A stretch of DNA of 20,000 bases from an uncultured virus (IMG/VR IMGVR_UViG_3300017780_003486) (IMGVR_UViG_3300017780_003486); one strand, 5' to 3'. Counted from the first letter of the stretch, positions 4,225 to 18,759 are shown. Notes: generated from the letters alone by a model not told the origin. Translations and numbers: made by a program.

Positions 4225-5358
4225 TCAGGCGGCCTTCTTAACGTCGAGCGCGGTCGCTTCGAGGACCTGCTTCCAGTCGGCCTTGCCCCAGTTCATCATC
4301 TGACCACCGGCTTCCTCGAACTCGACCGCGCGGTCGTAGTTCTTCGCCGTATGAGCCTGATGCGTAACGGCGTTCAGGAGACCCCAAGCGGAGAGGTCAC
4401 CGCCTTCGATCAGCGACTTGAGGATGCCGGACGACTCTTCGTCCGACACGCCGACCTTCTGCGAGAGAACGACGACGGCGGCCTGCGGGTCCTTCTCGAC
4501 CTTGATGCCGGTCAGCGTCTGAGCGTGTTCGATCTGCTTCCGGAAGCGGTTCTCGTCGACCGCCGACTTGACCATGTCGCGGACCTTCGAGAGAACGAGC
4601 TTGTCGTCGAGCTTCCGGGTCGAGTCCGACCAGAGGTCTTCGTTGTCGTCGATCTTCCGGCCGACGTGGTTCGCGCGGAAGCGATCCATACCCTTCATCC
4701 CGTTGAGGCAGATCAGGCGCCAGATCACCGACGAGACCGAGACCGAGCCGCAGCCGACTTCGGAGTTCGTGATCAGGACACCGGCCTGAACCACGTCGCC
4801 CTTCTTGATCTCGCCCTCGATAGCGGGCGTGACGGCTTGGATGTACATCCGCTTGTCCGTGACCTCGCACGAAACGATCTTGACGTTCGGAAGCTCCGCG
4901 AGGATCGGAAGCGCAACGTCGGCGATCTCGTGGTTATCGATCCGGCTATAGCGGTTCGAGAGGAAGCCGCGAGCGTTCCCGTGGAGAGTGCGGAGCATCC
5001 GCTTGTCGGCCTCGCGTTCGAGGTCGTGCTTGAGCCACGAGTTGACGTTCATCGCCAACAGGTCGGGTTGCTTCTCCAACATCCGGTCGTAATACTTCGC
5101 CGGGATGCCGACGTAGGTTCCGAGCTGATTGTGGACGAGATCGAGCATCGGGAAGCGCTCGGCCTCCCGCGTTCCGTAGAGTTCGAGAACCGGCCGACGC
5201 TTCTTGATCGGCGTCTTCGCGTTACCGATGGGCGGCTCTTCATAGTCGTCGATCTGCATAGCGAGGCCCTTGCGGGTCTCGACGATGAAATCCTTCCGGG
5301 CATCGCGGTTGAACTCGATCTTGCGCGCGAAGTCGGCGAGGCTAATTCCCTTTTGCAT
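4225..5358 (-). CDS. DUF932/DUF945-like phage protein
   Basis: 377 aa; RGFLSNRYSRIDN, ITNSEVGCGSVSV, IWRLICLNGM and SAWGLLNAVT motifs are typical of the DUF932 family; AGGAG RBS. Confidence 0.8.
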   Translation of the reverse strand: MQKGISLADFARKIEFNRDARKDFIVETRKGLAMQIDDYEEPPIGNAKTPIKKRRPVLELYGTREAERFPMLDLVHNQLGTYVGIPAKYYDRMLEKQPDLLAMNVNSWLKHDLEREADKRMLRTLHGNARGFLSNRYSRIDNHEIADVALPILAELPNVKIVSCEVTDKRMYIQAVTPAIEGEIKKGDVVQAGVLITNSEVGCGSVSVSSVIWRLICLNGMKGMDRFRANHVGRKIDDNEDLWSDSTRKLDDKLVLSKVRDMVKSAVDENRFRKQIEHAQTLTGIKVEKDPQAAVVVLSQKVGVSDEESSGILKSLIEGGDLSAWGLLNAVTHQAHTAKNYDRAVEFEEAGGQMMNWGKADWKQVLEATALDVKKAA

Positions 5359-5380
5359 TTCGTTCTCCTGCTCTTCCTAT

Positions 5381-5442
5381 GGCCTATCTCGTCAGCGCCG
5401 GGTGGCCGTATCCGGCGGACGCTCCCGGAGGAGCGTTTCGAT
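5381..5442 (-). ncRNA. type II hammerhead ribozyme with loop I/3'-tail pseudoknot
   Basis: Sense RNA: AUC-GAAA-CGCUCC(UCCG)GGAGCG-UC^-CGCCGG(AUACGGCCAC)CCGGCG-CUGACGA-GAU-AGGCC. The core is intact (CUGANGA, GAAA, GUC triplet, G10.1-C11.1) and stems I-III all pair. Predicted cleavage is between 5418 and 5417. Confidence 0.9.
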
Positions 5443-5804
5443 TATCCTTCTTCGTCGCTCGGGAGCGGTTCGATCCGCTTCCAAGCCTGATCGGGACCGC
5501 GCGGCGATCCGATATCGGCGATGCGCTTCTCCGATAGAAGCTCGCGAATGAGGTCCCACTGGTCTCGATGGACCTCCATACCGTCACAAGCCGAAGCGAC
5601 TTGGACGATGATCCGTTTCTCGACTTCCTTCTTCGCCATATCGATATCGTTGAAGAAAGCCGGTTCCTTCTTCGAAGACCAAACGCGGTCTTCGTTCTCT
5701 TCGAGAGTGAACCGATACGGACCGACCGGAGTTCGAATGATCCTCCAGTATATCCGGCCGAAGATTTCGGATCGGTACGCCTTGACGACGCCAGCGTCGT
5801 TCAT
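5442..5804 (-). CDS. hypothetical protein
   Basis: 120 aa; GGAGG RBS; ATGA overlap; its TAA stop overlaps hammerhead stem II. Confidence 0.7.
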   Translation of the reverse strand: MNDAGVVKAYRSEIFGRIYWRIIRTPVGPYRFTLEENEDRVWSSKKEPAFFNDIDMAKKEVEKRIIVQVASACDGMEVHRDQWDLIRELLSEKRIADIGSPRGPDQAWKRIEPLPSDEEG

Positions 5805-6052
5805 TCAACCCTCCATCCGAACGTCTTCCATCCCGCTTGATGCGGAGTCCACTCGCGGACCGAAGACGCCGATACGAGCTTGACGTATCGGCGCTCTGGT
5901 CCGTATTCGTTCAGCTTCGACGCCTCTTCGATATTCGCCGGGTAAGCCCGGTCGTGAGAGAGCATATCGAAAGGGAACGTGCCGGCTCCGCTCACTACGA
6001 ACTCGTAGCGAACGGCCGGGACCGATAGCCGGTCAAGTCTTCGGAGGTTCAT
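5801..6052 (-). CDS. hypothetical phage protein (FxVxGxGxFPxDML motif)
   Basis: Start reassigned to ATG 6052 (ATGA overlap, GAGG RBS); 83 aa. Confidence 0.65.
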   Translation of the reverse strand: MNLRRLDRLSVPAVRYEFVVSGAGTFPFDMLSHDRAYPANIEEASKLNEYGPERRYVKLVSASSVREWTPHQAGWKTFGWRVE

Positions 6053-6312
6053 TGGTGCTGATACCTCTTCCGTTCGATGGACGGCCAATGCCGCTGGGCT
6101 TCTTCGTACTTCAGTTTCGAGCCCCGGAGCGATACGGCTACAGCAGCGCTGCCAACCTCCTCTCCATCTTCGTGGTCGACTATCCCTTGATAGGCAACCT
6201 GAGTATTCGTCCCATCGTCTTCGACGAGAACGGCTAGGAGTATCCGCCGCTTCGATCCCCTACCGAGATAGGGGACCGTGGGGCTATGGATACCGATGAT
6301 CTTGCGGCTCAC
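6049..6312 (-). CDS. hypothetical protein
   Basis: 87 aa; GTGA overlap with the upstream gene. Confidence 0.6.
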   Translation of the reverse strand: MSRKIIGIHSPTVPYLGRGSKRRILLAVLVEDDGTNTQVAYQGIVDHEDGEEVGSAAVAVSLRGSKLKYEEAQRHWPSIERKRYQHQ

Positions 6313-7397
6313 TTCTTGGCCGCCTTCTTCTTCGCCGCTACCTTCTTCGGAGCGGCCTTCGGAGCGGCCTTCGGAGCGGCCTTCTTTGGGGCCGCCTTCG
6401 GGCTCGCCTTCGGACTCGCCTTCTTCGCCGCTACCTTCTTCGGTGTCGCCTTCGGACTCGCCTTCTTCGGTTCGGCCTTCTTGATGCCGACGTTCGTCAC
6501 GATCTGCGGTCGCGGCGTCTTCTTCTCCGGCTCCGTCTTCGTCGCGGCCGGAGGAGTAGCAGCCGGGGCGGCCTTCTCCGGGAGACCGTCGCGGAGCGTA
6601 AAGGCGTGTCCCTTCAGGGTCGCCTTCCCATCCTTGATGAGAAGAGCGCGAAGCGCCTTACGTTCGGAGTCCGCGATGCCGAGAGCCTTCAGCGCGGTCT
6701 TGATCGTCCCGTAAGACTTCCCGCCGACCGTCACGGCGATGCTCCCGGAAATCCCACCGCCTTCCTTCTTCGCTCGCGGCGTCGTCTCGCCGTTCGCTCG
6801 CGCGGTCTTATTCGCCTCGCGCTCGGCTTTCCTCTTCGCCTTCGCGTCTCGTTTCGCTTGTCTCTCGCGCTCGCGAACAACCTGCGCCGCCTTCTTCCGG
6901 ACCTCGGCCGACTCGGGAGCCGCCTTCTTCCTGACCTCGATGGTCTCGGCGGTCACGATCGTGATGCTCGCGTCGGCGATCTGCCCGCTAAGGACGTAGA
7001 GTTCGGGCGTGTACCAGTCGTTGAACGCTTCGAGGTTATCGAATAACTGCGACCTCGTACCGGCTTCGGTAACGAGATTGACTTGGACTGGCTTCATCGG
7101 GTCCTGCGGCGTGATCTTATCGATAGGCATTTGAAACTCCTTCGCTTTCGGCATAATCCATTCGCGCTCGGTATTGAGCAGACGCTTCAGTTCTTCGGGG
7201 CTCTTCTTCGGTCTGTTCGACCGGAGGAACTTCGGTATGACCCAGACGCAATCCGGGTGATGGTAGGAACCGGCCGGGGCTCCGCACTCTTCGCAAGCCC
7301 TGAGGCCAACGGGAGTATCGGACAAAGTCGGTTCGGAAGCGACGACCGGAGCCGCCGTCTTCTTAGGTGTCGATGACGATTTCTTCTTGGCGACCAT
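6309..7397 (-). CDS. Lys/Ala/Pro-rich histone H1-like protein with N-terminal Zn-finger-like motif and small HTH-like domain
   Basis: C-terminal PKKAAPKA-type repeats; CEEC...HHPDC; VTVGGKSYGTIKTALKALGI segment. Start at 7397 (GGAG RBS) or 7412. Confidence 0.75.
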   Translation of the reverse strand: MVAKKKSSSTPKKTAAPVVASEPTLSDTPVGLRACEECGAPAGSYHHPDCVWVIPKFLRSNRPKKSPEELKRLLNTEREWIMPKAKEFQMPIDKITPQDPMKPVQVNLVTEAGTRSQLFDNLEAFNDWYTPELYVLSGQIADASITIVTAETIEVRKKAAPESAEVRKKAAQVVRERERQAKRDAKAKRKAEREANKTARANGETTPRAKKEGGGISGSIAVTVGGKSYGTIKTALKALGIADSERKALRALLIKDGKATLKGHAFTLRDGLPEKAAPAATPPAATKTEPEKKTPRPQIVTNVGIKKAEPKKASPKATPKKVAAKKASPKASPKAAPKKAAPKAAPKAAPKKVAAKKKAAKK

Positions 7398-7467
7398 CGG
7401 AGGACTCTCCATCGGTGAAGGAAGACGAGACGAGAAGGACGATGAGGACGGCGACGATCCACCGCAT
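7363..7467 (-). CDS. small membrane or signal-peptide-bearing protein (34 aa)
   Basis: Below the ORF-track cutoff; ATG directly follows the upstream TAG, with GAAAGGA RBS: MRWIVAVLIVLLVSSSFTDGESSDGRQEEIVIDT. Confidence 0.5.
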   Translation of the reverse strand: MRWIVAVLIVLLVSSSFTDGESSDGRQEEIVIDT

Positions 7468-7743
7468 CTATGCGATCCTTTCCGGGTACGCCTCGGGGAA
7501 CGAGGTCATCAGTTGGATGGCCGCCTCGTCGGCGATCTGGATGGCCATATTCCTCCGAAGACGAAGACGAATGTAGTCGTCGTCCGTCAGGAGGTTCTCA
7601 AGAGCCCGAGCCTCTTCCTCGCGCTTTTCTTCGCGAAGCTGGATCGCCTTCCGTCCGATCTCGAAGCGAACGCCGTGACTCGTGAGAGGACGGAGCCGCA
7701 TCTGCTTGCGGAGTTTTTCGACTTTCTTCTGTAGGGTATTCAT
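7468..7743 (-). CDS. hypothetical protein
   Basis: 91 aa; AGGAG RBS right after repeat A. Confidence 0.75.
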   Translation of the reverse strand: MNTLQKKVEKLRKQMRLRPLTSHGVRFEIGRKAIQLREEKREEEARALENLLTDDDYIRLRLRRNMAIQIADEAAIQLMTSFPEAYPERIA

Positions 7744-7756
7744 CTCTTCTCCTGCT

Positions 7757-7817
7757 CCAGCGAAAGCGCTGGCGGATCGAGCGGAGCCGAAGCGCCGCTC
7801 TCACCGTTAGGGCTTTC
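7757..7817 (-). repeat. structured intergenic element, copy A (variant GAAAGC/GCTTTC)
   Basis: Sense: GAAAGCCCTAACGGTGAGAGCGGCGC-TTCG-GCTCCGCTCGATCCGCCAGCGCTTTCGCTGG. Confidence 0.95.
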
Positions 7818-8227
7818 TAGTTCTTCGTATAGACCGCGAGGCGATAATAGATCGGGCTGATGCCTTCTACCTCTTCGGTGGTTCGGAAATGGCGCCTGAC
7901 CTGCGCCTTCGCGAGTTCTTCGGGAGTGAGGTCTTTGACCGCTTCCTCGGCTTCACGAATGAATGCCGGCGGCGGATGTCCATCGCCCTCTTCCCAGTAC
8001 GTCGCCAAGAACTTCGCGACGAGCAACCGAAGATCGCTCGGCGGTTCGATAACGAGTAGCGACGTGTCGAACCGTTGCGATGCGTGATTGGTCCCGGCCT
8101 CTCGTATATAACACGCCGTCTGGTTCCGTCCGGGAACGATGCGAACGATTTCCCAGAGCGTTTCTCCGACGCCTTTCCCGCCAGCGAGCTTGACGCGGAC
8201 CTTATCGCCTATCTTGAATTTCGTCAT
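7817..8227 (-). CDS. hypothetical protein (N-terminal SH3/KOW-like FKIGDKVRV motif)
   Basis: 136 aa; lies between repeats B and A; AGGAG RBS. Confidence 0.75.
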   Translation of the reverse strand: MTKFKIGDKVRVKLAGGKGVGETLWEIVRIVPGRNQTACYIREAGTNHASQRFDTSLLVIEPPSDLRLLVAKFLATYWEEGDGHPPPAFIREAEEAVKDLTPEELAKAQVRRHFRTTEEVEGISPIYYRLAVYTKN

Positions 8228-8243
8228 CGAGTTCTCTCCTATA

Positions 8244-8304
8244 CCAGCGGAAGCGCTGGCGGATCAAGCCCCGGATCATCGAGGCTCTCACCGTTAGAGC
8301 TTCC
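8244..8304 (-). repeat. structured intergenic element, copy B
   Basis: Sense: GGAAGCTCTAACGGTGA-GAGCCTCG-ATGATC-CGGGGCTT-GATCCGCCAGCGCTTCCGCTGG; two G-U pairs in the variable stem. Confidence 0.95.
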
Positions 8305-8930
8305 TAGAGAGCTTCTTCGTTAGCGCGAGGCCGAGCAAGCTCGTGAGCCTTGAGCCCGATACACCGCTTGCAGTTGACCTCCTCCCACTTAGACCGGACG
8401 CGCGCCTTCGACTGCCGGAACGAAAACCGGTTCCCGCTCGATACTGCCGTGCAGAGCGGACGACCGAAACCGCTACGGCTGAAGTGGATCGGCGCTGGCC
8501 GCTTCGGCTTCGTCTTCTTCTCTATCGTATCCTCCTCCGAAGGCCCGAGCGGCGCTCCCTTCGGTCGGAAGCGCATACCGGAGATATGGCCGCGACTGAA
8601 GTTATGACCGTCCTTCGTCCGAAGGAGCCAATCTCTGACGGCACTTTCGAGGTCGCCGGAAATCCGGATGCCGTAGTCGGGGCCGCGCACGCCGTTGGTC
8701 CCCCACTCAAGGCCGTGCGAGGTCTCGTAAGCGAAGGAGCGAACCTGCCGAACGATGTCGGCGGCGCAGAGATAGAACGTCCGCGTGTACCAGCGGCGAC
8801 CGTACTTTCCGAAGTCGCCATCCGGGTGGTCCTTCTCCTGCTTCGCGCGATCCTTAAGGTTGTCGGCCCAGAGGAAGTCCCACGCGGCGGGGATCGCCTT
8901 GGCGATGTCGAACGAAAAACGCTTTCCCAT
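8304..8930 (-). CDS. hypothetical protein with C-terminal His/Cys motif (H...C...CxxC)
   Basis: 208 aa; AGGAGG RBS; its TAG overlaps repeat B. Confidence 0.75.
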   Translation of the reverse strand: MGKRFSFDIAKAIPAAWDFLWADNLKDRAKQEKDHPDGDFGKYGRRWYTRTFYLCAADIVRQVRSFAYETSHGLEWGTNGVRGPDYGIRISGDLESAVRDWLLRTKDGHNFSRGHISGMRFRPKGAPLGPSEEDTIEKKTKPKRPAPIHFSRSGFGRPLCTAVSSGNRFSFRQSKARVRSKWEEVNCKRCIGLKAHELARPRANEEAL

Positions 8931-8942
8931 AATCGTGTCCTC

Positions 8943-9191
8943 CTATCGAACGGCGGTGGTCGAAAGCGAATAGATCGGCCGCCAGACGACGTGTACTTCG
9001 TCCGTCCCGCTCGGGCCGTAGAGGAAGCAAGGGAGTGACGTGTTCTCCGTCTCCCGTTCGATACGACGAACCGCGTCGATGTGTAAGCGAAGGTAGCGCG
9101 CGATCACCGGCAGCGGAGCGCGCATCACAAACGAGAGGTCGTTCTTATCGCTCTTCGGGGCGACCGACAGATCGTACAACTGAATGGCCAT
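8943..9191 (-). CDS. hypothetical protein
   Basis: 82 aa; AAAGGA RBS after repeat C. Confidence 0.7.
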   Translation of the reverse strand: MAIQLYDLSVAPKSDKNDLSFVMRAPLPVIARYLRLHIDAVRRIERETENTSLPCFLYGPSGTDEVHVVWRPIYSLSTTAVR

Positions 9192-9210
9192 AGGTTACGT
9201 CCTTTCTATT

Positions 9211-9271
9211 CCAGCGGAAGCGCTGGCGGATCGAGCCCCGGATCGTCGGGGCTCTCACCGTTAGAGTTTCC
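9211..9271 (-). repeat. structured intergenic element, copy C
   Basis: Sense: GGAAACTCTAACGGTGA-GAGCCCCG-ACGATC-CGGGGCTC-GATCCGCCAGCGCTTCCGCTGG. Confidence 0.95.
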
Positions 9272-10243
9272 TCACTTCTTCTCGACTTGGAGGTCGAGGC
9301 CGATCTTGTCGCCGGCAACCCGTCCGACGCTGAACGCTTCTCCCTTCTTCGCGTTCTTCGCGTTCTCGCGAGCGTTCTTCTTGTAGTATTCGCGAGCGGC
9401 CTTCTTCGCGTCCTCTTCGCTATAGCCGTGGCTCCGATAGAACGCTTCGACCCAATCGACGCCTTCGCTTTCGAGGCGTTCGGCGACGAGGCGACGCTCG
9501 CGCTCAGACGCCTCGCGGCCTTTCCTCCGGGCCGCCGTCGTTCCGGCCGGGAGGCCATAGCGAAGATCGGCGTTGAGGTCTTCTTCCGAGCCGTAGACAT
9601 CCGAGAGGAGGACAAGGCCCGTGCCGGGAGTAGCGCTACCCGTCGCGGCGGTCGCCTTCCGACGAGCGGCCTCCGCTTCGGCTTCTTCGCGCTCCCGCTT
9701 CGCGCGCTGGGCGAAAAGACGTTCAGAGAGACGCGAGACCGCGCCGTCAAAGAAGAGCGCGTTGTCGGAGGTCCCGTGGTCGTATCCGTGACGCGCGGCC
9801 TCGCGCCCAATCGACTTGACGAGATAGTCGTAAAGGGCAATCGTTCCTTGGATGTTGATCGTCCGCCCGATCAGAACGTGGAAGGTCGACTTCTTGAGCC
9901 CGAGATGTCGGCGGCTCTTGAGCGTCCGCTCGACGAGCTTCTCCTGCACGAAGTGGATGCAGAAGTTCCCCTTCGCGAGAGCGGCCATAAGCTCGCGCTG
10001 CCACTTGTACATCGCGCGCCGATCCGTCTCGGCCTTCTCGCGATCCGTCATCGCGTCGGCGTTACGCTCCGAAGCCGTGACCTGCGCGAGCGACAAGCCG
10101 TAGTCCTGAAGGAGTTCCTGTACCTTCGCCGCAGCGCTCTCGGCTTCGGCGGCCGACGAGTTCTTATTCTTATCGGCGAGGGCGAGGAGCTTCTTGATAC
10201 GCTCGATCACTTTCTCGGTCGGCATCTGCTGTTGGTTCGTCAT
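9272..10243 (-). CDS. DUF2786 domain protein
   Basis: N-terminal KVIERIKKLLALA...AEAESAAAKVQELLQDYGLS is the DUF2786 pattern; C-terminal AFSVGRVAGDKIGL; AAGGAG RBS. Confidence 0.85.
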   Translation of the reverse strand: MTNQQQMPTEKVIERIKKLLALADKNKNSSAAEAESAAAKVQELLQDYGLSLAQVTASERNADAMTDREKAETDRRAMYKWQRELMAALAKGNFCIHFVQEKLVERTLKSRRHLGLKKSTFHVLIGRTINIQGTIALYDYLVKSIGREAARHGYDHGTSDNALFFDGAVSRLSERLFAQRAKREREEAEAEAARRKATAATGSATPGTGLVLLSDVYGSEEDLNADLRYGLPAGTTAARRKGREASERERRLVAERLESEGVDWVEAFYRSHGYSEEDAKKAAREYYKKNARENAKNAKKGEAFSVGRVAGDKIGLDLQVEKK

Positions 10244-10258
10244 CTATCTCTCCTTATC

Positions 10259-10319
10259 CCAGCGGAAGCGCTGGCGGATCAAGCCTCGTACTATCGAGGC
10301 TCTCACCGTTAGAGCTTCC
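10259..10319 (-). repeat. structured intergenic element, copy D
   Basis: Variable stem GAGCCTCG-ATAGTA-CGAGGCTT with consensus flanks. Confidence 0.95.
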
Positions 10320-10666
10320 TACGGCGAAGCGTCCCATCCGGCAGCGCGTTCGGCCGCGCGGATACCGGAAAGGTCGTATGACCGCTCGCGCCTCCGGTCG
10401 GCAAGGCCGACGGCACGCTCGACTTCTTCGAGAGGCCATCCGACGTATCGAGCGAACCGCTCGCGCGCCTTCGCCTCGTTCATCGTCTTCTTGACCGGCC
10501 GTCCTTCGACCTTGCACCAGACGACGAGGCCGAGATGGATCGTCGTCTTCCTCTTTCCTTTCCTCTCTACCGTGTACTCGACGAAGGAGTACGGGTCGTG
10601 GCGCGGTCCCTCGTCGCCGTTCTTGACCGTGATCGAACCGCTCGTCGTCTTATAGCGTTCATACAT
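10319..10666 (-). CDS. hypothetical basic protein
   Basis: 115 aa; lies exactly between repeats E and D; AGGAG RBS. Confidence 0.75.
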   Translation of the reverse strand: MYERYKTTSGSITVKNGDEGPRHDPYSFVEYTVERKGKRKTTIHLGLVVWCKVEGRPVKKTMNEAKARERFARYVGWPLEEVERAVGLADRRRERSYDLSGIRAAERAAGWDASP

Positions 10667-10680
10667 TCGTCTCTCCTATC

Positions 10681-10742
10681 CCAGCGGAAGCGCTGGCGGA
10701 TCGAGCCCCGGATCGCGTCGGGGCTCTCACCGTTAGAGCTTC
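10681..10742 (-). repeat. structured intergenic element, copy E
   Basis: Variable stem GAGCCCCG-ACGCGATC-CGGGGCTC; the TAA inside the element is the methyltransferase stop codon. Confidence 0.95.
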
Positions 10743-11245
10743 ACGAGTTGCGTAGCGAGACAGATGTTTCTCTCGACGATCCCGCAGATCAATTGGAAAC
10801 CGATCTTAAGGCGCCAGTCGATGCGTCCGCCTTCCCGATCATATGTAGTGTCGGTGAAGAGGTTCTTGAACGTCTCTTCCGTCCACGACGATTTGTGATC
10901 GAGGTTCTGATGCTGTAGTTGCGAATTATAGTACGGCACCACGATAAGCGCGGAACCGCCCGGCTTCAGAACTCGATTTATTTCCTCGACGACTTTCGTA
11001 GCGGTCGAGCCGTCGAGATGTTCGAAGAAGTGATAAGCGACCACTCCCGCCACTTCTTCGTCTCCGAACGGGATCGTATCTCGTCGAGCATCCCAATCGG
11101 GAAGATCGAGGTTGGTCGTTTCGTAGGGAAGGGCCTTTCGACCGGAGCCGAGGTTGATTATCGGCCCGGATGGAAAAGAAAGGATGGCCGGAACGTCCCG
11201 GCTCATCCCCCAGCGAAACAGGTCTTGAAAGCGAACTTCCTTCAT
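10733..11245 (-). CDS. class I SAM-dependent methyltransferase (Methyltransf_11-like)
   Basis: INLGSG (motif I), NLD, IPFGDEEV, HFFEHL and EINRVLKPGG..IVVP motifs; AAGGAGG RBS. Confidence 0.85.
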   Translation of the reverse strand: MKEVRFQDLFRWGMSRDVPAILSFPSGPIINLGSGRKALPYETTNLDLPDWDARRDTIPFGDEEVAGVVAYHFFEHLDGSTATKVVEEINRVLKPGGSALIVVPYYNSQLQHQNLDHKSSWTEETFKNLFTDTTYDREGGRIDWRLKIGFQLICGIVERNICLATQLVKL

Positions 11246-11248
11246 TGA

Positions 11249-11590
11249 CTAAGCCTCCTTAACGATCTGAAAGGTAACGGAACGCTTGCCGTTCTCGAAC
11301 ACGGCCCGACCGCTCGCCTTCAACGACTTGCGAAACCGGGCACACTGGGCGGCGGTCCCGAGCTTCAGCGACTTGAAGGCGCTCCAGGCGCTATCGTACT
11401 TCTTGCCGCCGACCTTAACGGCGTGGCGGGTGGCCCGCGCCTTCATAACCTTGTCCGACGCGGCCTTCTTCGCCGTCTTCTTCGCGACCTTCTTGACCGC
11501 GACCTTCTTGACCGCGACCTTCTTCGTGTTCTCGGCCGAAGCCTTGACGACGTTGGCGACGACGGCGACGTTGTTCTTCTTGGCGTTCAT
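11249..11590 (-). CDS. histone H1-like Lys/Ala-rich DNA-binding protein
   Basis: KKVAVKKVAVKKVAKKTAKK repeats followed by a VKVGGKKYDSAWSAFKSLKL domain; AGGAG RBS. Confidence 0.75.
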   Translation of the reverse strand: MNAKKNNVAVVANVVKASAENTKKVAVKKVAVKKVAKKTAKKAASDKVMKARATRHAVKVGGKKYDSAWSAFKSLKLGTAAQCARFRKSLKASGRAVFENGKRSVTFQIVKEA

Positions 11591-11640
11591 AGTAGTCTCC
11601 TATTTCGAAGTACCCGCTCGTCCTCTCGGGATCGGAGCGT

Positions 11641-11697
11641 CCAGCGGAAGCGCTGGCGGATCGAGCGGCCGTAGCCGCTCTCACCGTTAGAGCTTCC
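11641..11697 (-). repeat. structured intergenic element, copy F
   Basis: Variable stem GAGCGGC-TACG-GCCGCTC (cUACGg tetraloop). Confidence 0.95.
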
Positions 11698-11792
11698 TAG
11701 TAGTTCCGCTCGTCGTTCTCCGGGTCTCCGATAAGCCAGAGGACGAGAGCTGCCGCGATCCACGGCGAGAGTAGTTGAACAGCGAGCCACAT
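11697..11792 (-). CDS. small membrane protein (31 aa)
   Basis: Below the ORF-track cutoff; AGGAGG RBS; MWLAVQLLSPWIAAALVLWLIGDPENDERNY; its TAG overlaps repeat F exactly as for the other genes. Confidence 0.65.
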   Translation of the reverse strand: MWLAVQLLSPWIAAALVLWLIGDPENDERNY

Positions 11793-11804
11793 CAGACGGT
11801 CCTC

Positions 11805-12005
11805 CTAGTACCGGGTGCCGTAGTAGAGCCACGGATTGTTGGGGTGGCGCTTGTTCATCACGCGATGAAACTCACGTACGATGCCGTCACTGACATTCAA
11901 CTCTCTGACGATCTCGCTCTTGCTGAAGCGAGCCAGAAAGACGTTGGTGAAGACGTAGATGACCTGAAGGTAGATGGCCTGAGACAGTTCGTTCATAATG
12001 TTCAT
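11805..12005 (-). CDS. hypothetical protein
   Basis: 66 aa (or 63 aa from the second Met, which is better spaced from AGGAGG). Confidence 0.65.
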   Translation of the reverse strand: MNIMNELSQAIYLQVIYVFTNVFLARFSKSEIVRELNVSDGIVREFHRVMNKRHPNNPWLYYGTRY

Positions 12006-12009
12006 CCTC

Positions 12010-12147
12010 CTAAGCGATCAGATATCCGTACCGATTGTACCAGCCTCGTCTCGTCTTGATCGGTCGGCTCCGGGTTCCTTTTCGAGACGCGGCGAATTCA
12101 CATTCGAGCCGTATCGCGTCACATAGCGCTTTCAGATCGAACGTCAT
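12010..12147 (-). CDS. small basic hypothetical protein (45 aa)
   Basis: Below the ORF-track cutoff; ATGA overlap and GAGGAG RBS; MTFDLKALCDAIRLECEFAASRKGTRSRPIKTRRGWYNRYGYLIA fills the gap exactly. Confidence 0.6.
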   Translation of the reverse strand: MTFDLKALCDAIRLECEFAASRKGTRSRPIKTRRGWYNRYGYLIA

Positions 12148-12371
12148 CGCGCGCTCTCCTCTTCGTTAAGGCGACGAACCACCGCGTCGATATCGGCCTG
12201 TCGGTCGCCGCTCTTAACGATCTTGAGGTTCTTCCGGCGAACGCCGAGCCCTTCGTCGTAGAGGTCGTCTGCTTCGTCCGCGACGGTCGCGCGGTCGTAG
12301 TCGCCGAAGTGGATCGCCCACGGGCTCTTATCGTCGTCTCGCGTCACGAGCGTGTAATACGTCTTCGCCAT
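12144..12371 (-). CDS. hypothetical phage protein
   Basis: Start reassigned to ATG 12371 (MAKTYYTLVTRDD...WAIHFGDYDR), after AAGGAG and repeat G; 75 aa. Confidence 0.8.
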   Translation of the reverse strand: MAKTYYTLVTRDDDKSPWAIHFGDYDRATVADEADDLYDEGLGVRRKNLKIVKSGDRQADIDAVVRRLNEEESAR

Positions 12372-12389
12372 CGTCGTCTCCTTCGTTAC

Positions 12390-12450
12390 CCAGCGGAAGC
12401 GCTGGCGGATCGAGCGGCACCGAAGCGCCGCTCTCACCGTTAGAGCTTCC
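12390..12450 (-). repeat. structured intergenic element, copy G
   Basis: Variable stem GAGCGGCGC-TTCG-GTGCCGCTC (cUUCGg tetraloop, one G-U pair). Confidence 0.95.
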
Positions 12451-12740
12451 TAGTAGTTGACTTCGTAGTAGCGACGACCATCGCGACCGAGAGAACGAAG
12501 GACCTTCGCTTGGTGGAGTGCTTTGACCGCTTCGGTGAGGTCGACCGTCTCGACGTTGTTAAGTGCCGCTCCGATCCGGTTGATCTGATCGATGTCGATC
12601 ATCGCGTAATACATAACCCGGAAGACCCGAGCCGCGAGTGCGGTCGACGGCGACCAGTTCGCCTTTACCTCTAAGAAGCCGTCGAGCAGTTCGAACGTCT
12701 TCGCTTCTTCTTCGGACCGCTTCGAATAATCCTTAGCCAT
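12450..12740 (-). CDS. hypothetical protein (possible wHTH-like C-terminus)
   Basis: 96 aa; lies exactly between repeats H and G; AAGGAG RBS. Confidence 0.75.
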   Translation of the reverse strand: MAKDYSKRSEEEAKTFELLDGFLEVKANWSPSTALAARVFRVMYYAMIDIDQINRIGAALNNVETVDLTEAVKALHQAKVLRSLGRDGRRYYEVNY

Positions 12741-12760
12741 CGTCGTCTCTCCTTCGTTAT

Positions 12761-12817
12761 CCAGCGGAAGCGCTGGCGGATCGAGCGGCCGCAGCCGCTC
12801 TCACCGTTAGAGCTTCC
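12761..12817 (-). repeat. structured intergenic element, copy H
   Basis: Variable stem GAGCGGC-TGCG-GCCGCTC (cUGCGg tetraloop). Confidence 0.95.
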
Positions 12818-13071
12818 TAGTTCTCGTCGTTAAGCTCGCTATCGGCGAACTCTTCCCAGAGGAAGCGCTCGGCTTCCTCGATGGTCCCGAATGTCCGGTC
12901 GTCTCCGGCGAGGCTCACTTCGTAATGAGCGCTGGTCGACCCTTCGTTCGGCACGCCGATATAGAAGGCGTCGAGGTAGAGGTATCCGGCGAACTCCGCG
13001 AAGCCGCTCGTGTACGGCGCGAGGTTCGAGACGTACTTACGCGATGCCTTGAACTCTTCGAACGTCGTCAT
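12817..13071 (-). CDS. hypothetical acidic protein
   Basis: 84 aa; lies exactly between repeats I and H; AAGGAG RBS. Confidence 0.75.
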   Translation of the reverse strand: MTTFEEFKASRKYVSNLAPYTSGFAEFAGYLYLDAFYIGVPNEGSTSAHYEVSLAGDDRTFGTIEEAERFLWEEFADSELNDEN

Positions 13072-13090
13072 GGTCTTTCTCCTTCGTTAC

Positions 13091-13151
13091 CCAGCGGAAG
13101 CGCTGGCGGAGACCGACACGACGGATCGTGTCGGCTACCGTTAGAGCTTCC
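13091..13151 (-). repeat. structured intergenic element, copy I (fully replaced inner stem)
   Basis: Sense: GGAAGCTCTAACGG-TAG-CCGACACGA-TCCG-TCGTGTCGG-TCT-CCGCCAGCGCTTCCGCTGG. Confidence 0.95.
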
Positions 13152-13157
13152 TGATCG

Positions 13158-13352
13158 TTAGCGCTTCTTGCCGCCGATGTTCGGCTGCGGGTTGAACTCC
13201 TTCGGCTTACGTTCGAACGTCGCGCCCTGATCGTAGTTCTCGACGAGCTGTTCGGCTTCCTTATGAGCCTTCGCCGAGTAGAGCGACCACATCGGCGTGT
13301 GCAGAACCTTCTGAGCATTACGATACGACTTGGATGAAATCCGATAAGCCAT
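13158..13352 (-). CDS. hypothetical protein (first gene of the repeat-punctuated array)
   Basis: 64 aa; AAGGAG RBS after repeat J. Confidence 0.75.
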   Translation of the reverse strand: MAYRISSKSYRNAQKVLHTPMWSLYSAKAHKEAEQLVENYDQGATFERKPKEFNPQPNIGGKKR

Positions 13353-13373
13353 GTTCTTCTCCTTCTTCGTTAC

Positions 13374-13435
13374 CCAGCGGAAGCGCTGGCGGATCGAGCG
13401 TCGTTAGTATCGACGCTCTCACCGTTAGAGCTTCC
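13374..13435 (-). repeat. structured intergenic element, copy J (5'-most, no upstream gene)
   Basis: Variable stem GAGCGTCG-ATACTAA-CGACGCTC with consensus flanks. Confidence 0.95.
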
Positions 13436-13439
13436 TCTT

Positions 13440-13480
13440 TTAAGTTAGTAGCATAACCTCAGTCGCGACGGCTTCATAGA
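13440..13480 (-). promoter_or_regulatory. possible sigma70-type promoter for the accessory array
   Basis: -10-like TATGCT at 13455-13450 in a local AT-rich patch just upstream of copy J; the -35 match is poor. Confidence 0.3.
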
Positions 13481-14139
13481 GCGCATCGGTTCGTTATGCA
13501 TCGATCTCTCTTCGCTAAACTCCGCGTCTCGCACTCGGACGGGGAACGGCCTCCGCGCTTAAGAGCCTCTATCGTTCCGGCGACTAGAGCGACGGGGGAA
13601 CGATTTCAGGACTTATCTATTCAGCGACTTGGGGCGGGATAGGAAGAGGCTAGACCCGTCCCGATCCGAACGCCGAGGCCGCTTCTCCTTTCGGCCTACA
13701 GAGGAGGACGAGGAAAGGAGAGCAGAGCCATCGGCCCAGAAGGGGCGATAGGGTCTAGGGTTCTTTAGCCGGGGCCGCCTAGAGTGCTAATCGAACCTCG
13801 CCGTTTTGGCTGCAAGCGGTTCGAAGAGCCTAGCAGGGCGCTTCTAATTTTTCCCCGGTTCCCTCCAGCGGCCTCCACGCGACCCTAAGTTACGGAGGGG
13901 AACCAGCGAGGCCCGGAGGCCCCGCCCCTCCGACGTTCCCGCCGGAGGTAGGCTCATTATAGAAAGAAAGAGGAAGGAAGGAAGGCCCGAAAACCGATTT
14001 TTTAGGCCCCATATATAGTAGGGGTCCGGGCCGCCCCGGTCCGGGAGCCCTCCCGGAGCTCAGGAAAGGCCCAAAATCGACAAGGCTAAAAGCCTTACGC
14101 CATCGGCATTAAAACGAAACCACGACCAAAACAGGCGTT

Positions 14140-14691
14140 CTATCGACTCCCGGCCGGGGATCGGGGCCTAGTAGGGGCCGGGCCGGGGCTCCCGGCCGGG
14201 GCTCCCGGAAGGCGTCTAATCGATCCTCCGGCGACCGGGGCGATAACCTCGCGCCATTTCGGGAGCGGAGCGAATAGAAGGACCTCGCGGATAGCCTTCC
14301 AGTTCCATCGCGAAGGTCCTCCAGTCTCGACGAGTATCGCCTTCGCATCGATGCCTCTCTCCAGTACCTCACGCGCCTGAACTCCGAAGAAGAGATAAAG
14401 CTCATCGACCTCTTCACCAAGCCGTGGGCCTTCGCGCGTCTCTCGTCTCGCGGCGATGAATGATCGTCCGCCAGCGATGGCGCGACGAGTATGCCAGCCG
14501 ACCTGCTTGGGCCTCATCCGAATGGTCTTGCCGTAGACGCGCTTGTTCTCGATCCAGAACTCGACGCCCTCGTCGCACCCGTTGGTATCGGGTACGCCTT
14601 GGACCGTCATACCGGTTTCGATAGGGAGAAGATGCATACCGCGAAGATGCGCGTTGTAGATCGACCGTAGGCCGCCGTCCGTCCCGCTCAT
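14140..14691 (-). CDS. PD-(D/E)xK nuclease, VRR-NUC / Holliday junction resolvase-like
   Basis: Start reassigned to ATG 14691 (ATGA overlap). GVPD...GVEFWIENK...MRPKQVGWH...AGG is the VRR-NUC-type pattern; low-complexity C-terminal tail. Confidence 0.75.
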   Translation of the reverse strand: MSGTDGGLRSIYNAHLRGMHLLPIETGMTVQGVPDTNGCDEGVEFWIENKRVYGKTIRMRPKQVGWHTRRAIAGGRSFIAARRETREGPRLGEEVDELYLFFGVQAREVLERGIDAKAILVETGGPSRWNWKAIREVLLFAPLPKWREVIAPVAGGSIRRLPGAPAGSPGPAPTRPRSPAGSR

Positions 14692-15425: not shown

Positions 15426-15891
15426 TGATCCAATCTCCCCAGAGGTTATGAACTTCGCGCTTCCTCTTCCTCGCGTACTCGACGCAACGGAACGTCCCGC
15501 CTTCACGGCTTCCGTCGTGGAGCGCGATGACGGCGGAGGAGCGGTCGACCATCCATTCGTTTCGCTTATGCATCTTCCAAGCGGCATATACGCCGTCGCT
15601 CACGAAGACGACTTCCTCGGCTCGGCTTAGGAGGAGTCGATAGCGCTCCTTCGTGGCCTCGGGCCAACGCGCCTCCTGTCCGGGGAACGGCACCGCCGCC
15701 TTGAACGGGACATCGAGGCGAACGCAGGCCGCCGCAACGGCGAGGTCGAAGCCGAGCGCCATACCGACGATCATCCCGCTTGGCTTCAGCCTCAGTAGAC
15801 CTTTCTCCGCAACCGCGATGAGGCGCGCGGTTACTTCATCGCTATAACCGCCGAGCTTATCGGGGCGGTGTCCGGTAGCTGCCATGATCAT
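15418..15891 (-). CDS. SLOG superfamily protein (YspA/DUF1273-like)
   Basis: Start at ATG 15891 (GGAGG RBS). ATGHRP, GMALGFD, AAVPF, RNEWMVDRS..VIALHDG..GGT..CVEYA motifs. Confidence 0.88.
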   Translation of the reverse strand: MIMAATGHRPDKLGGYSDEVTARLIAVAEKGLLRLKPSGMIVGMALGFDLAVAAACVRLDVPFKAAVPFPGQEARWPEATKERYRLLLSRAEEVVFVSDGVYAAWKMHKRNEWMVDRSSAVIALHDGSREGGTFRCVEYARKRKREVHNLWGDWING

Positions 15892-18369: not shown

Positions 18370-18675
18370 CTAGGCTTCGGCGGCTGCCGGCGCTGCGGGC
18401 TTCACCTTCTTGGTCTTCAGGATGCCGGCGTCGATGCTCTTCGTGATCAGGCCGCGCTTCGCGCTCGTGTTCTTGATCACGTCGGCGACCGTGCAGCCGG
18501 GGTTCTTGCCGACATACTTGGCCATGTCCGCGAACCGCGCGTGCGCCGCGCTTCCTTCCCGGCGCGGGTTCTCGCCGACCGACACGATCTGCATGTCCGC
18601 GCCGTACTTCATCTTTGCCGGAGCCTTCTTCTTCGCCGCGACCTTCTTCTTCGCGGCCTTCTTCTTCGCTGCCAT
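18370..18675 (-). CDS. small basic histone-like protein
   Basis: Start reassigned to ATG 18675 (MAAKKKAAKKKVAAKKKAPAK), followed by an NPRREGSAAHARF domain; 101 aa. Confidence 0.7.
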   Translation of the reverse strand: MAAKKKAAKKKVAAKKKAPAKMKYGADMQIVSVGENPRREGSAAHARFADMAKYVGKNPGCTVADVIKNTSAKRGLITKSIDAGILKTKKVKPAAPAAAEA

Positions 18676-18759
18676 GTTCCTGTCCTTCCTTACTTTCTTT
18701 CTCTCGCCCATTATTGGGGAGCCCACTTAGCTAACCTACGAACTACACGGATGAAAGAC

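Follow-up and report, generated by a model that had tools for sequence, protein, structure and literature searches.

Ten copies of a short structured element punctuate the mRNA of an early/accessory phage operon in a 20,000-nucleotide (nt) stretch of DNA from an uncultured virus (IMGVR_UViG_3300017780_003486), and these copies belong to a family of cis-acting structured RNAs that has not been catalogued before. We call the whole stretch, at its full length, the window. The copies pair at the RNA level, share two alternative folds and hold a fixed place between the stop codon of one gene and the Shine-Dalgarno (SD) motif of the next, and many uncultured phages carry the family. Phage operons punctuated by structured RNA are known already; the fold of this element, as far as sequence comparison goes, appears to be new and is absent from Rfam 15.

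Ten copies in one operon

The minus strand is the sense strand for every gene in this part of the window, and all ten copies lie on it as well. A regular expression applied to both strands found exactly ten copies on the minus strand and none on the plus strand, and a gapped pattern gave ten matches against 0.00 expected from 200 dinucleotide-preserving shuffles. We also built a covariance model from the copies and searched the full 20 kb with it, without filters; it scored the copies at 76.4-86.2 bits on the minus strand; the same sites read on the plus strand reached 23.4-34.9 bits and the next best place anywhere 15.9 bits. The viral record G001 (44.6 kb), near-identical to the window, has the same ten copies and no further ones.

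Read 5' to 3' in the RNA, the element is composed of P1a (GGAAGC), UCUAA (NCUNA in the family), P2a (CGG), UGA, the P3 hairpin (GAGC-variable-GCUC), GAU, P2b (CCG), CCAGC, P1b (GCUUCC) and GCUGG. Copy H (12761..12817, 57 nt, UGCG loop) serves as reference. On the minus strand, its 5' parts are P1a at 12817-12812, UCUAA at 12811-12807, CGG at 12806-12804 and UGA at 12803-12801; the P3 hairpin (12800-12783), GAU (12782-12780) and CCG (12779-12777) form its middle, and CCAGC (12776-12772), GCUUCC (12771-12766) and GCUGG (12765-12761) its 3' end.

The remaining copies, all on the same strand, are variations on this theme. Copy J (13374..13435, 62 nt, 85.6 bits) is the first in the operon, situated in the 5' leader with no credible upstream open reading frame (ORF) and with an ATG 21 nt downstream. 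Copy I (13091..13151, 61 nt, 76.4 bits) is a variant which retains P1, NCUNA, P2, CCAGC and GCUGG and has a different 9-bp stem with a UCCG loop in place of the UGA/GAU loop and GAGC/GCUC. Copy G (12390..12450, 61 nt) has a UUCG loop and one G·U pair in P3, and copy F (11641..11697, 57 nt) a UACG loop and a next ATG 50 nt downstream. In copy E (10681..10743, 63 nt), P1a reads UGAAGC and the upstream ORF ends at the UAA within UCUAA; in copy D (10259..10319, 61 nt) the closing pair of P3 is a G·U. Copy C (9211..9271, 61 nt) has P1a GGAAAC, leaving an A·C mismatch in P1, and is adjoined by a UGA stop, copy B (8244..8304, 61 nt) has two G·U pairs in P3, and copy A (7757..7817, 61 nt), the last of the series, combines a UUCG loop with a compensatory P1 change (GAAAGC/GCUUUC). 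All four inner-hairpin G·U pairs of B, D and G would be A·C on the opposite strand. The first base of the element is the G of a UAG stop in copies A, B, D, F, G and H. The next ATG stands 13-21 nt past GCUGG, except for the 50 nt of copy F, and is preceded in each case by an SD-like motif.

Most of this had been claimed by a sequence-only reading of the stretch, and its description holds up well. The ten starts are those it had listed, its sense consensus is correct, and the five UNCG loops it had counted (UUCG twice, UACG, UGCG and UCCG) are all present, as are the G-U wobbles restricted to the mRNA strand. ORF positions bear out the stop codons it had assigned to six copies, to C and to E, and also the spacing to the next ATG with its SD. 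Its length range of 57-62 nt is right at the lower bound and too short at the upper one, copy E measuring 63 nt by the boundaries used here.

The UAG that supplies the first G of copy F closes a 31-amino-acid (aa) hydrophobic ORF at 11697-11792 on the minus strand. This ORF, with the sequence MWLAVQLLSPWIAAALVLWLIGDPENDERNY, has an SD of its own and is not among the listed ORFs.

Copies also form near-identical pairs (F and H, for instance, agree in 98%), which suggests, on sequence grounds, that duplication or recombination may have spread whole junctions. The repeat extends past the fold in four copies, G, H, I and J, where it takes in a shared start region, (G/A)UAACGAAGGAGA...AUG, at 12371-12389, 12742-12760, 13072-13090 and 13355-13373, respectively.

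Selection on an RNA fold

We aligned 62 distinct family members, drawn from the window and about 30 other viral and metagenome loci. Standard pairs occupy 95.3% of the cells of this alignment versus 79.0 +/- 0.7% in shuffles, and the covariation score amounts to 0.452 versus 0.151 +/- 0.010, none of 500 shuffles being as high. When the 3' partners are slid by 1-3 columns, pairing falls to 34-46%. Pairs changed on both sides were found at all six positions of P1, at two of the three in P2 and at six of the seven in P3, in accordance with the earlier claim that the inner hairpin changes and still pairs. In P1, whole helices are exchanged between phages: GGAAGC/GCUUCC, GGGAGC/GCUCCC, GAGGUU/AACCUC, CUGAGC/GCUCAG and GUGAGU/ACUUGC. 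The 5' end matches its own loop with a mean best complementary run of 5.11, compared with 4.06 +/- 0.11 (maximum 4.42) for swapped loops in 200 permutations.

The strand can be read from the wobble pairs. The outer seven P3 positions of 60 distinct arms comprise 394 Watson-Crick pairs, 19 G·U, one A·C and 10 other combinations, and in 60 of 61 elements the P2-P3 arm folds more stably as the sense strand. Such asymmetry is expected for a fold in the sense transcript or, strictly speaking, in a sense single-stranded nucleic acid. The element is structured as RNA of the sense strand, and three of its helices covary over about 30 independent loci.

About 26 of 57 positions are at least 90% conserved among the 62 sequences, while P1 and P3 vary freely. 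These figures are to be read together with the way the sequences were collected: 37 of the 52 non-window sequences match one of the search patterns, and parsing required UGA, CCAGC and GCUGG. Conservation is also seen outside all search patterns, at C8, U9, A11 and C12 and in the final UGG of the 3' GCUGG. The UGA/GAU loop is lacking, and the base of P3 replaced, in at least four members (copy I, L166:5276-5338, L199:479-538 and L205:1052-1105), which retain P1, NCUNA, CCAGC and GCUGG. The internal loop of the arm is thus usual but not indispensable.

Two competing folds

P1b has a dual role. It pairs with P1a and at the same time forms the loop of a hairpin whose stem is CCAGC/GCUGG; since one strand serves both purposes, the RNA has to be bistable or pseudoknotted. 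In form A, the element is one long imperfect hairpin built of P1, a C-G and a U-A pair between NCUNA and CCAGC, P2, the UGA/GAU loop and P3, that is, 6+2+3+7-9 pairs plus internal loops. In form B, the P2-P3 arm stands beside a second hairpin, CCAGC-P1b-GCUGG, which abuts the SD.

Over 61 family members, the mean free energy is -30.2 kcal/mol for form A and -27.7 kcal/mol for form B, the latter being more stable than form A in eight of them. Form A is the minimum-free-energy fold in eight of nine window copies of one folding set (copy I was folded separately), and RNAalifold, given the 62-member alignment, predicts it unguided. In folded constructs of copies H, D and I that included the SD, the SD was unpaired.

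In 12 of the 62 members, the loop of the CCAGC hairpin is only 3-5 nt long and P1 extends into the CCAGC stem, so that there, at least, the two folds are mutually exclusive. Sterically, a 6-nt loop could conceivably pair with P1a over its whole length, in the manner of kissing loops; given the 12 short-loop members, we model forms A and B as alternatives of a bistable RNA and not as a static pseudoknot. The position of NCUNA that would correspond to G5 of a hammerhead core may be A, G, C or U, the CCA that follows the P2-P3 helix is invariant, and so is the CCAGC/GCUGG stem throughout the alignment. Support for this stem comes from one compensatory variant (L161:8479, CCAGU...AUUGG) and two C-to-U wobble variants.

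Position between cistrons

The element fills the intercistronic gap almost exactly. An upstream ORF could be called for 58 elements, and in 48 of them its stop codon ends between -3 and +16, counted from the first base of P1a. Peaks occur at 0 (UAG-G, 13 cases), +3 (UGA within P1a, 14 cases) and +10 (UAA or UGA of NCUNA, seven cases); 24 stops fall at +3 to +16, the deepest being the UGA of CGGUGA at +16. On the other side, an SD appears within a few nt after GCUGG, and the next start follows 12-22 nt after GCUGG in 46 of the 57 elements with a callable downstream start. Orientation of the element always follows the genes. Copy J and a few other family members have no upstream ORF.

Within a unit, genes with no element between them overlap or abut, as at UAGAUG at about 7468. 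A second short hydrophobic ORF begins at this overlap, near 7465.

Hammerhead ribozymes at equivalent junctions

An Rfam scan of the window identified a type II hammerhead ribozyme (RF02276) at 5378..5443 on the minus strand, with 46.7 bits against a gathering score of 37. It is complete, possessing CUGACGA, GAAAC and GUC. A 120-aa ORF ends at a UAA that it overlaps, and after it come an AGGAG motif and the start codon (ATG) of a DUF932 gene. Its stop-to-SD position, in the same transcription unit, is equivalent to that of the element.

The same neighbourhood is found in G007, an unrelated phage record of 60 kb with a single copy of the element. A type II hammerhead (L232 5646-5709, minus strand, 38.5 bits) is located two junctions downstream of that copy, and each of the two overlaps a stop codon, a UAG in the case of the hammerhead. 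The start regions that follow them are near-identical, ACUACCACGGAGACUUCCCAUG and ACCUACCAAUCGGAGACUUCCCAUG, with the common start region CGGAGACUUCCCAUG.

Like the type II hammerhead, the element is about 60 nt long, occupies stop-to-SD gaps of phage operons, occurs in several copies flanking changing genes, and combines two adjacent hairpins with pairing that involves a hairpin loop; the two are found in the same operons. It is, however, no hammerhead. The CUGANGA/GAAA/UH core is missing, the would-be G5 position varies freely, GAU stands where the hammerhead has GAA, and P2 follows it instead of a stem III hairpin. Its helices P1, P2 and P3 are stacked in series and not arranged around a three-way junction of the hammerhead type. 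Covariance models of the hammerhead clan (CL00010) had no match on the copies in the very scan that finds the true hammerhead at 5378-5443.

Several hammerheads flanking single genes of changing identity in prophages are described by Perreault et al. 2011 (PMC3088659), where processing of long phage transcripts was proposed as their role. Bacterial self-cleaving ribozymes are reported to be enriched near other ribozymes (PMC10085705), and gene-neighbourhood searches by the Weinberg group are credited with pistol, hatchet and twister-sister (PMC10085705, PMC5737381).

Distribution and novelty of the family

Homologs were collected with patterns on the conserved core, leaving P1 and the interior of P3 free, and the covariance model was then applied to the flanks. 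Pattern scans retrieved 13 stretches of 11 viral contigs and 49 stretches of 42 metagenome contigs; the covariance model found 29 viral and 96 metagenome matches in the flanks, overlapping loci and antisense reads included. Deduplication left 92 distinct match sequences, of which 68 have the layout CCAG(C/U)...loop...(G/A)(C/U)UGG and the other 24 are antisense reads or truncated or degenerate copies. The number of copies per record ranges from one (G007, rated 100% complete) to the ten of the window, and one metagenome contig of 2.5 kb holds at least eight. A looser first pattern gave more than 119 single matches at chance level and was not used; L131, which has no model match, is a chance match as well.

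No Rfam 15 family matched any copy, either in a cmscan of the whole window at E<=10 or with laxer filters over 12380-12830, where only two 16-bit matches to a small RNA (sRNA) model appeared, on the opposite strand. These scans also took in such motifs of Weinberg et al. 2015 (PMC4509812) as have entered Rfam. Among cultured phages, blastn of the 7-kb region had no match, and the element alone had only partial matches (34-43% coverage, E>=0.2); the one in Rhodobacter phage RC1 falls within a structural-module gene. Scanning of host genome contigs produced three stretches, two of them without a model match at E<=0.1 and the third at 18.8 bits; with no convincing match there, no host can be named. 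No description of the motif was found in the literature searched.

Carrier phages and flanking genes

The window is phage DNA and encodes proteins similar to Pam3 gp33 and gp34, a fragment of DnaE and an exonuclease resembling RNase T. Between the copies, the genes are small and for the most part orphan, the exceptions being a methyltransferase, a DUF2786/DUF7168 protein and a basic 113-aa protein. Relatives of the last one occur beside the element in contigs L166 and L222.

We looked for a conserved neighbouring gene across the flanks of the family, by protein clusters and Pfam, and found none: 63 of 83 clusters are singletons and two of 68 flanking proteins have a Pfam domain. Neither did a comparison of G001 with six other carrier records reveal a phage protein common to carriers. 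Of the G001 ORFs of at least 60 aa, 13 have any tblastn match (E<=1e-6) in those records; nine match G008 only, and none matches G006 or G007. As the carriers, barely related phages, share almost no proteins, it must be the RNA itself or a conserved host function that acts, and a dedicated phage partner protein seems unlikely from these comparisons.

Four cassette genes of the window (8304-13352) recur in G008 (L240, 14088-16500), a moderately related phage, with 42-71% identity. Far fewer genes lie between them there, and the 82-aa and 208-aa genes are in opposite order, differences which are consistent with gain, loss and shuffling of cassettes.

Several further features of these records were noted. 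Upstream of copy J, a leader of about 700 nt (13436..14140, minus strand) has no convincing ORF, and the operon presumably starts within it. At 13895-13930 it contains a very G+C-rich hairpin, probably the terminator of the preceding operon, with a weak CRISPR-DR29-like match (21.4 bits where 39 are needed); a TATAAT word is present near 13955-13960. Most other direct-repeat families in the window are codon repeats in Lys/Ala-rich genes (GCC/TTC/TTC periodicity on the plus strand) and not non-coding elements; the protein genes concerned are at 6309-7412, 11249-11590 and 18370-18726 on the minus strand. G001 is 98-99% identical to the window, and the sole large difference seen is about 228 extra bases (G001 11292-11518) at window position ~15889-15891. 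In G007, L234 16561-16672 on the minus strand matches the Rhizobiales sRNA family Atu_At1 with 72.5 bits (gathering score 60), a hint that this phage may infect an alphaproteobacterium.

Discussion

How might such an element work? Our tentative proposal, by analogy with the hammerheads, is an intercistronic module for processing and insulation of mRNA; we hold it with somewhat less than even confidence. The element would work as the gene-flanking hammerheads of prophages do. Within the element, the polycistronic RNA would be cleaved past the embedded stops but ahead of the SD. Since the deepest stops reach +16, every upstream ORF keeps its stop only if the cut falls 3' of there; with the SD as the other limit, the room for a productive cut extends from the 3' side of the arm to GCUGG. 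Cleavage at CCAGC, or immediately before it, would make the P2-P3 hairpin the 3' end of the upstream mRNA, and the downstream mRNA would start with CCAGC-P1b-GCUGG as a 5'-terminal hairpin. This hairpin would form only once P1a has been removed or is held open by a terminating ribosome. Form A before the cut and form B after it would account for both conserved folds; cleavage by a type II hammerhead ends in the same way, one product keeping stem III and the other stem I.

Beyond two folds at a fixed place, every step is inference: that the RNA is cut at all, at what point, and by itself or by a host RNase. RNase III acting on form A would be the obvious host candidate. That the core is conserved across unrelated phages seems to speak for an RNA acting on its own, or for a specific host partner, more than for RNase III. 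Copy J, located in the leader where no gene precedes it, is easier to reconcile with trimming or insulation than with coupling to a preceding cistron.

If the RNA cuts itself, the element may be a new structural class of self-cleaving ribozyme, about 57 nt long, pseudoknotted or bistable, and cutting between the P2-P3 arm and the 3' hairpin. Such a candidate would be built from P1, NCUNA and the CCAGC/GCUGG hairpin, and in phages it and the type II hammerhead would be interchangeable. The idea is plausible in view of the equivalent positions of the two; we nevertheless rate both parts of it as unlikely.

A number of points weigh against processing, with or without a ribozyme. A search of sequencing runs listed three DNA runs with this sequence and no RNA run. 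No known catalytic core is present in the element, and members devoid of the UGA/GAU loop are awkward if that loop is catalytic. RNase III needs no sequence conservation of this kind, and the conservation of the core is itself partly imposed by the patterns with which homologs were found. The CCAGC/GCUGG stem, being invariant in the alignment, is without covariation support. Hammerheads are present in two of seven long viral records, one of which (G001) is a near-copy of the window, and the Rfam scan had no match in the other five nor in 40 short metagenome loci. Finally, overlap with stop codons and the existence of two folds fit a switch that is driven by ribosomes and involves no cleavage just as well.

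That switch, which we consider rather doubtful, would be operated by translation. A ribosome terminating at the stop in P1a or NCUNA would melt form A; the freed 3' half would snap into the CCAGC/GCUGG hairpin beside the SD and alter initiation of the next cistron, by coupling or by deliberate uncoupling, and about 60 nt folded away would bring stop and SD close in space. It is the best explanation of the overlap, with stops at -3 to +16 in most members and often in conserved positions (UAG-G, the UGA of P1a, UAA or UGA of NCUNA), and it makes sense of two mutually exclusive folds that are both conserved, of an SD within a few nt of GCUGG and of genes that overlap or abut (UAGAUG) where no element intervenes. 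However, the SD is unpaired in both folds, so there is no obvious gating, and every downstream gene has a strong SD of its own; copy J, which the switch does not explain, and a few other members have no upstream ORF, and equivalent junctions are occupied by the hammerhead, which cuts. It is quite unlikely that the element is a site for a conserved host protein or machine (a ribosomal protein, RNA polymerase as with HK022 put RNA, or RNase P through the helix-CCA look-alike CCG-CCA), serving as operator, antiterminator or tRNA-like punctuation mark. Such a site would explain a conserved core of about 26 positions amid free P1 and P3, carriers without a common protein, and the invariant CCA after the P2-P3 helix, and form B, two adjacent stem-loops of about 60 nt, resembles the two-stem put RNA of about 70 nt (PMC9378689). 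Yet put is described as occurring twice per genome after early promoters and not at each gene junction (PMC9378689), ten copies are not needed for processive modification, no discriminator base precedes the CCA, the P3 loops are not T-loop-like, and the search patterns have inflated the conservation.

A function at the level of DNA appears very improbable, be it a junction for cassette recombination similar to the PeSLs of T4-type phages, a protein operator, a promoter of a phage polymerase or a single-stranded DNA hairpin site such as the attC of integrons. The repeat does not stop at the end of the fold but takes in the SD region as well (GUAACGAAGGAGA in copies G to J), copies occur in near-identical pairs such as F and H, cassette genes are common piecemeal to other carriers, with the order of two differing in G008, and CCAGCG-GAAG-CGCTGG is an inverted repeat in DNA. 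But G·U exceeds A·C by 19 to 1, folding is better on the sense strand in all but one of 61 elements, and P1 and P3 covary with wholly different sequences among phages, which a sequence-specific DNA site would not allow. Moreover, the orientation is always that of the genes, 5000-14200 contains no sigma-70-like promoter, and the RYYYAAC/GTTRRRY pair of the attC consensus is missing. Recombination at the repeats is likely a by-product.

Of the systems already described, the RNase III signals of the T7 early operon (R0.3, R0.5, R1, R1.1 and R1.3) resemble form A in size and shape. T7 early gaps fold as similar imperfect hairpins of 60-80 nt with internal loops, form A is of comparable length, and both are placed in the leader and between cistrons of an early operon. 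RNase III processing in T7 leaves a 3' hairpin on the upstream mRNA. Form A has the shape of a T7-type signal in that it is an imperfect hairpin, runs to about two helical turns and sits between cistrons; unlike the element, however, T7 sites have no second, competing hairpin and are not deeply conserved across unrelated phages. The put RNA of HK022 is described as about 70 nt with two stem-loops, acting in cis on nascent RNA and requiring no phage protein; two are found per genome, after early promoters, and bind the beta' zinc-binding domain of RNA polymerase (PMC9378689). Compared by description only, form B also consists of two adjacent stem-loops, but the element occurs in ten copies at gene junctions, whereas put has no relation to stop codons or SD. 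The PeSL cassettes of T4-type phages are reported as repeated short motifs between small variable early genes, tied to modular shuffling (PMC2839356, PMC4122927). As presented there, PeSLs are promoter-plus-stem-loop signals of DNA and transcription, whereas the conservation pattern of the element is that of an RNA fold and no promoter was found: promoter-like sites of the sigma-70 type numbered zero on either strand of 5000-14200. No copy has a terminator-like site on the minus strand; two weak matches to an intrinsic terminator, at A and J, are on the plus strand.

Known ribozymes were compared strand by strand. The ribozyme of hepatitis delta virus (HDV) and its relatives have the order P1-P2-P3-P3'-P1'-P4-P4'-P2', a nested double pseudoknot. 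The element, with P1a, P2a, P3, P3', P2b, CCAGC, P1b and GCUGG, differs from this and has no HDV-like match in Rfam. In pistol, a pseudoknot joins the P1 hairpin loop and the P2/P3 internal loop; the loop-pairing strand of the element is outside P2, not inside. Three stems, a pseudoknot and 10 highly conserved nucleotides are reported for pistol (PMC4604425). Covariance models of pistol, twister and twister-sister had no match at E<=10. Hatchet is described as having four stems, P1-P4, the P1 hairpin being joined to P2 by three conserved residues, with cleavage at the 5' end of P1 (PMC6561176). P1 of the element, in contrast, is a long-range helix that encloses P2-P3, there are only three nested helices and no Rfam match, and cleavage at the 5' end would cut off the 24 stops at +3 to +16.

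Other readings were discarded as well. Integron attC sites have an inverse core, RYYYAAC, and a core, GTTRRRY, at their two ends; the element has one GTTAGAG-like word on the plus strand with no partner at the other end, and its P1 differs completely between phages. Likeness to boxA/nut (GCUCU-AAC) is confined to the phage of the window, as the stretch concerned is P1 and covaries. A kink-turn does not suit a loop that is a symmetric 3x3. Stop-codon readthrough or hopping finds no common frame, since lengths of 57, 61, 62 and 63 nt differ by non-multiples of three, and the same lengths dispose of a small ORF inside the element. CRISPR-like repeats have no Rfam match here, and the UG27 non-coding RNA arrays (Minerva preprint) are of different size, with no reverse transcriptase accompanying the element.

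The sequence-only reading had taken the copies for an RNA structure and could match them to no known ribozyme core. Covariation in P1, P2 and P3 across the independent loci has made the structural part much stronger. The Rfam cmscan it had proposed placed no family, ribozyme families included, on the copies, and a covariance-model search, also its proposal and run here on the flanks of pattern matches in viral and metagenome sequences, extended a family whose covariation is above all 500 shuffles. What it had missed are the dual role of P1b, the spread of the family and the hammerhead of the operon.

Natural classes of self-cleaving ribozymes are few, nine to twelve by published counts. Pistol, hatchet and twister-sister came from non-coding regions near ribozyme-associated genes, and the element passes the same test. 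Its core is strongly conserved, its covariation is clear, and Rfam 15 does not contain it. If it does represent a ribozyme class, early operons would be chopped into hairpin-capped mRNAs of single genes. Even if a host RNase makes the cut, or no cut is made, the element is a compact natural part of about 60 nt with a stop codon at one end and a ribosome-binding site at the other, possibly a natural counterpart of the engineered insulator parts used in operon design. Diverse phages have placed it between unrelated genes, which bears on the question of why phages punctuate their operons with ribozymes.

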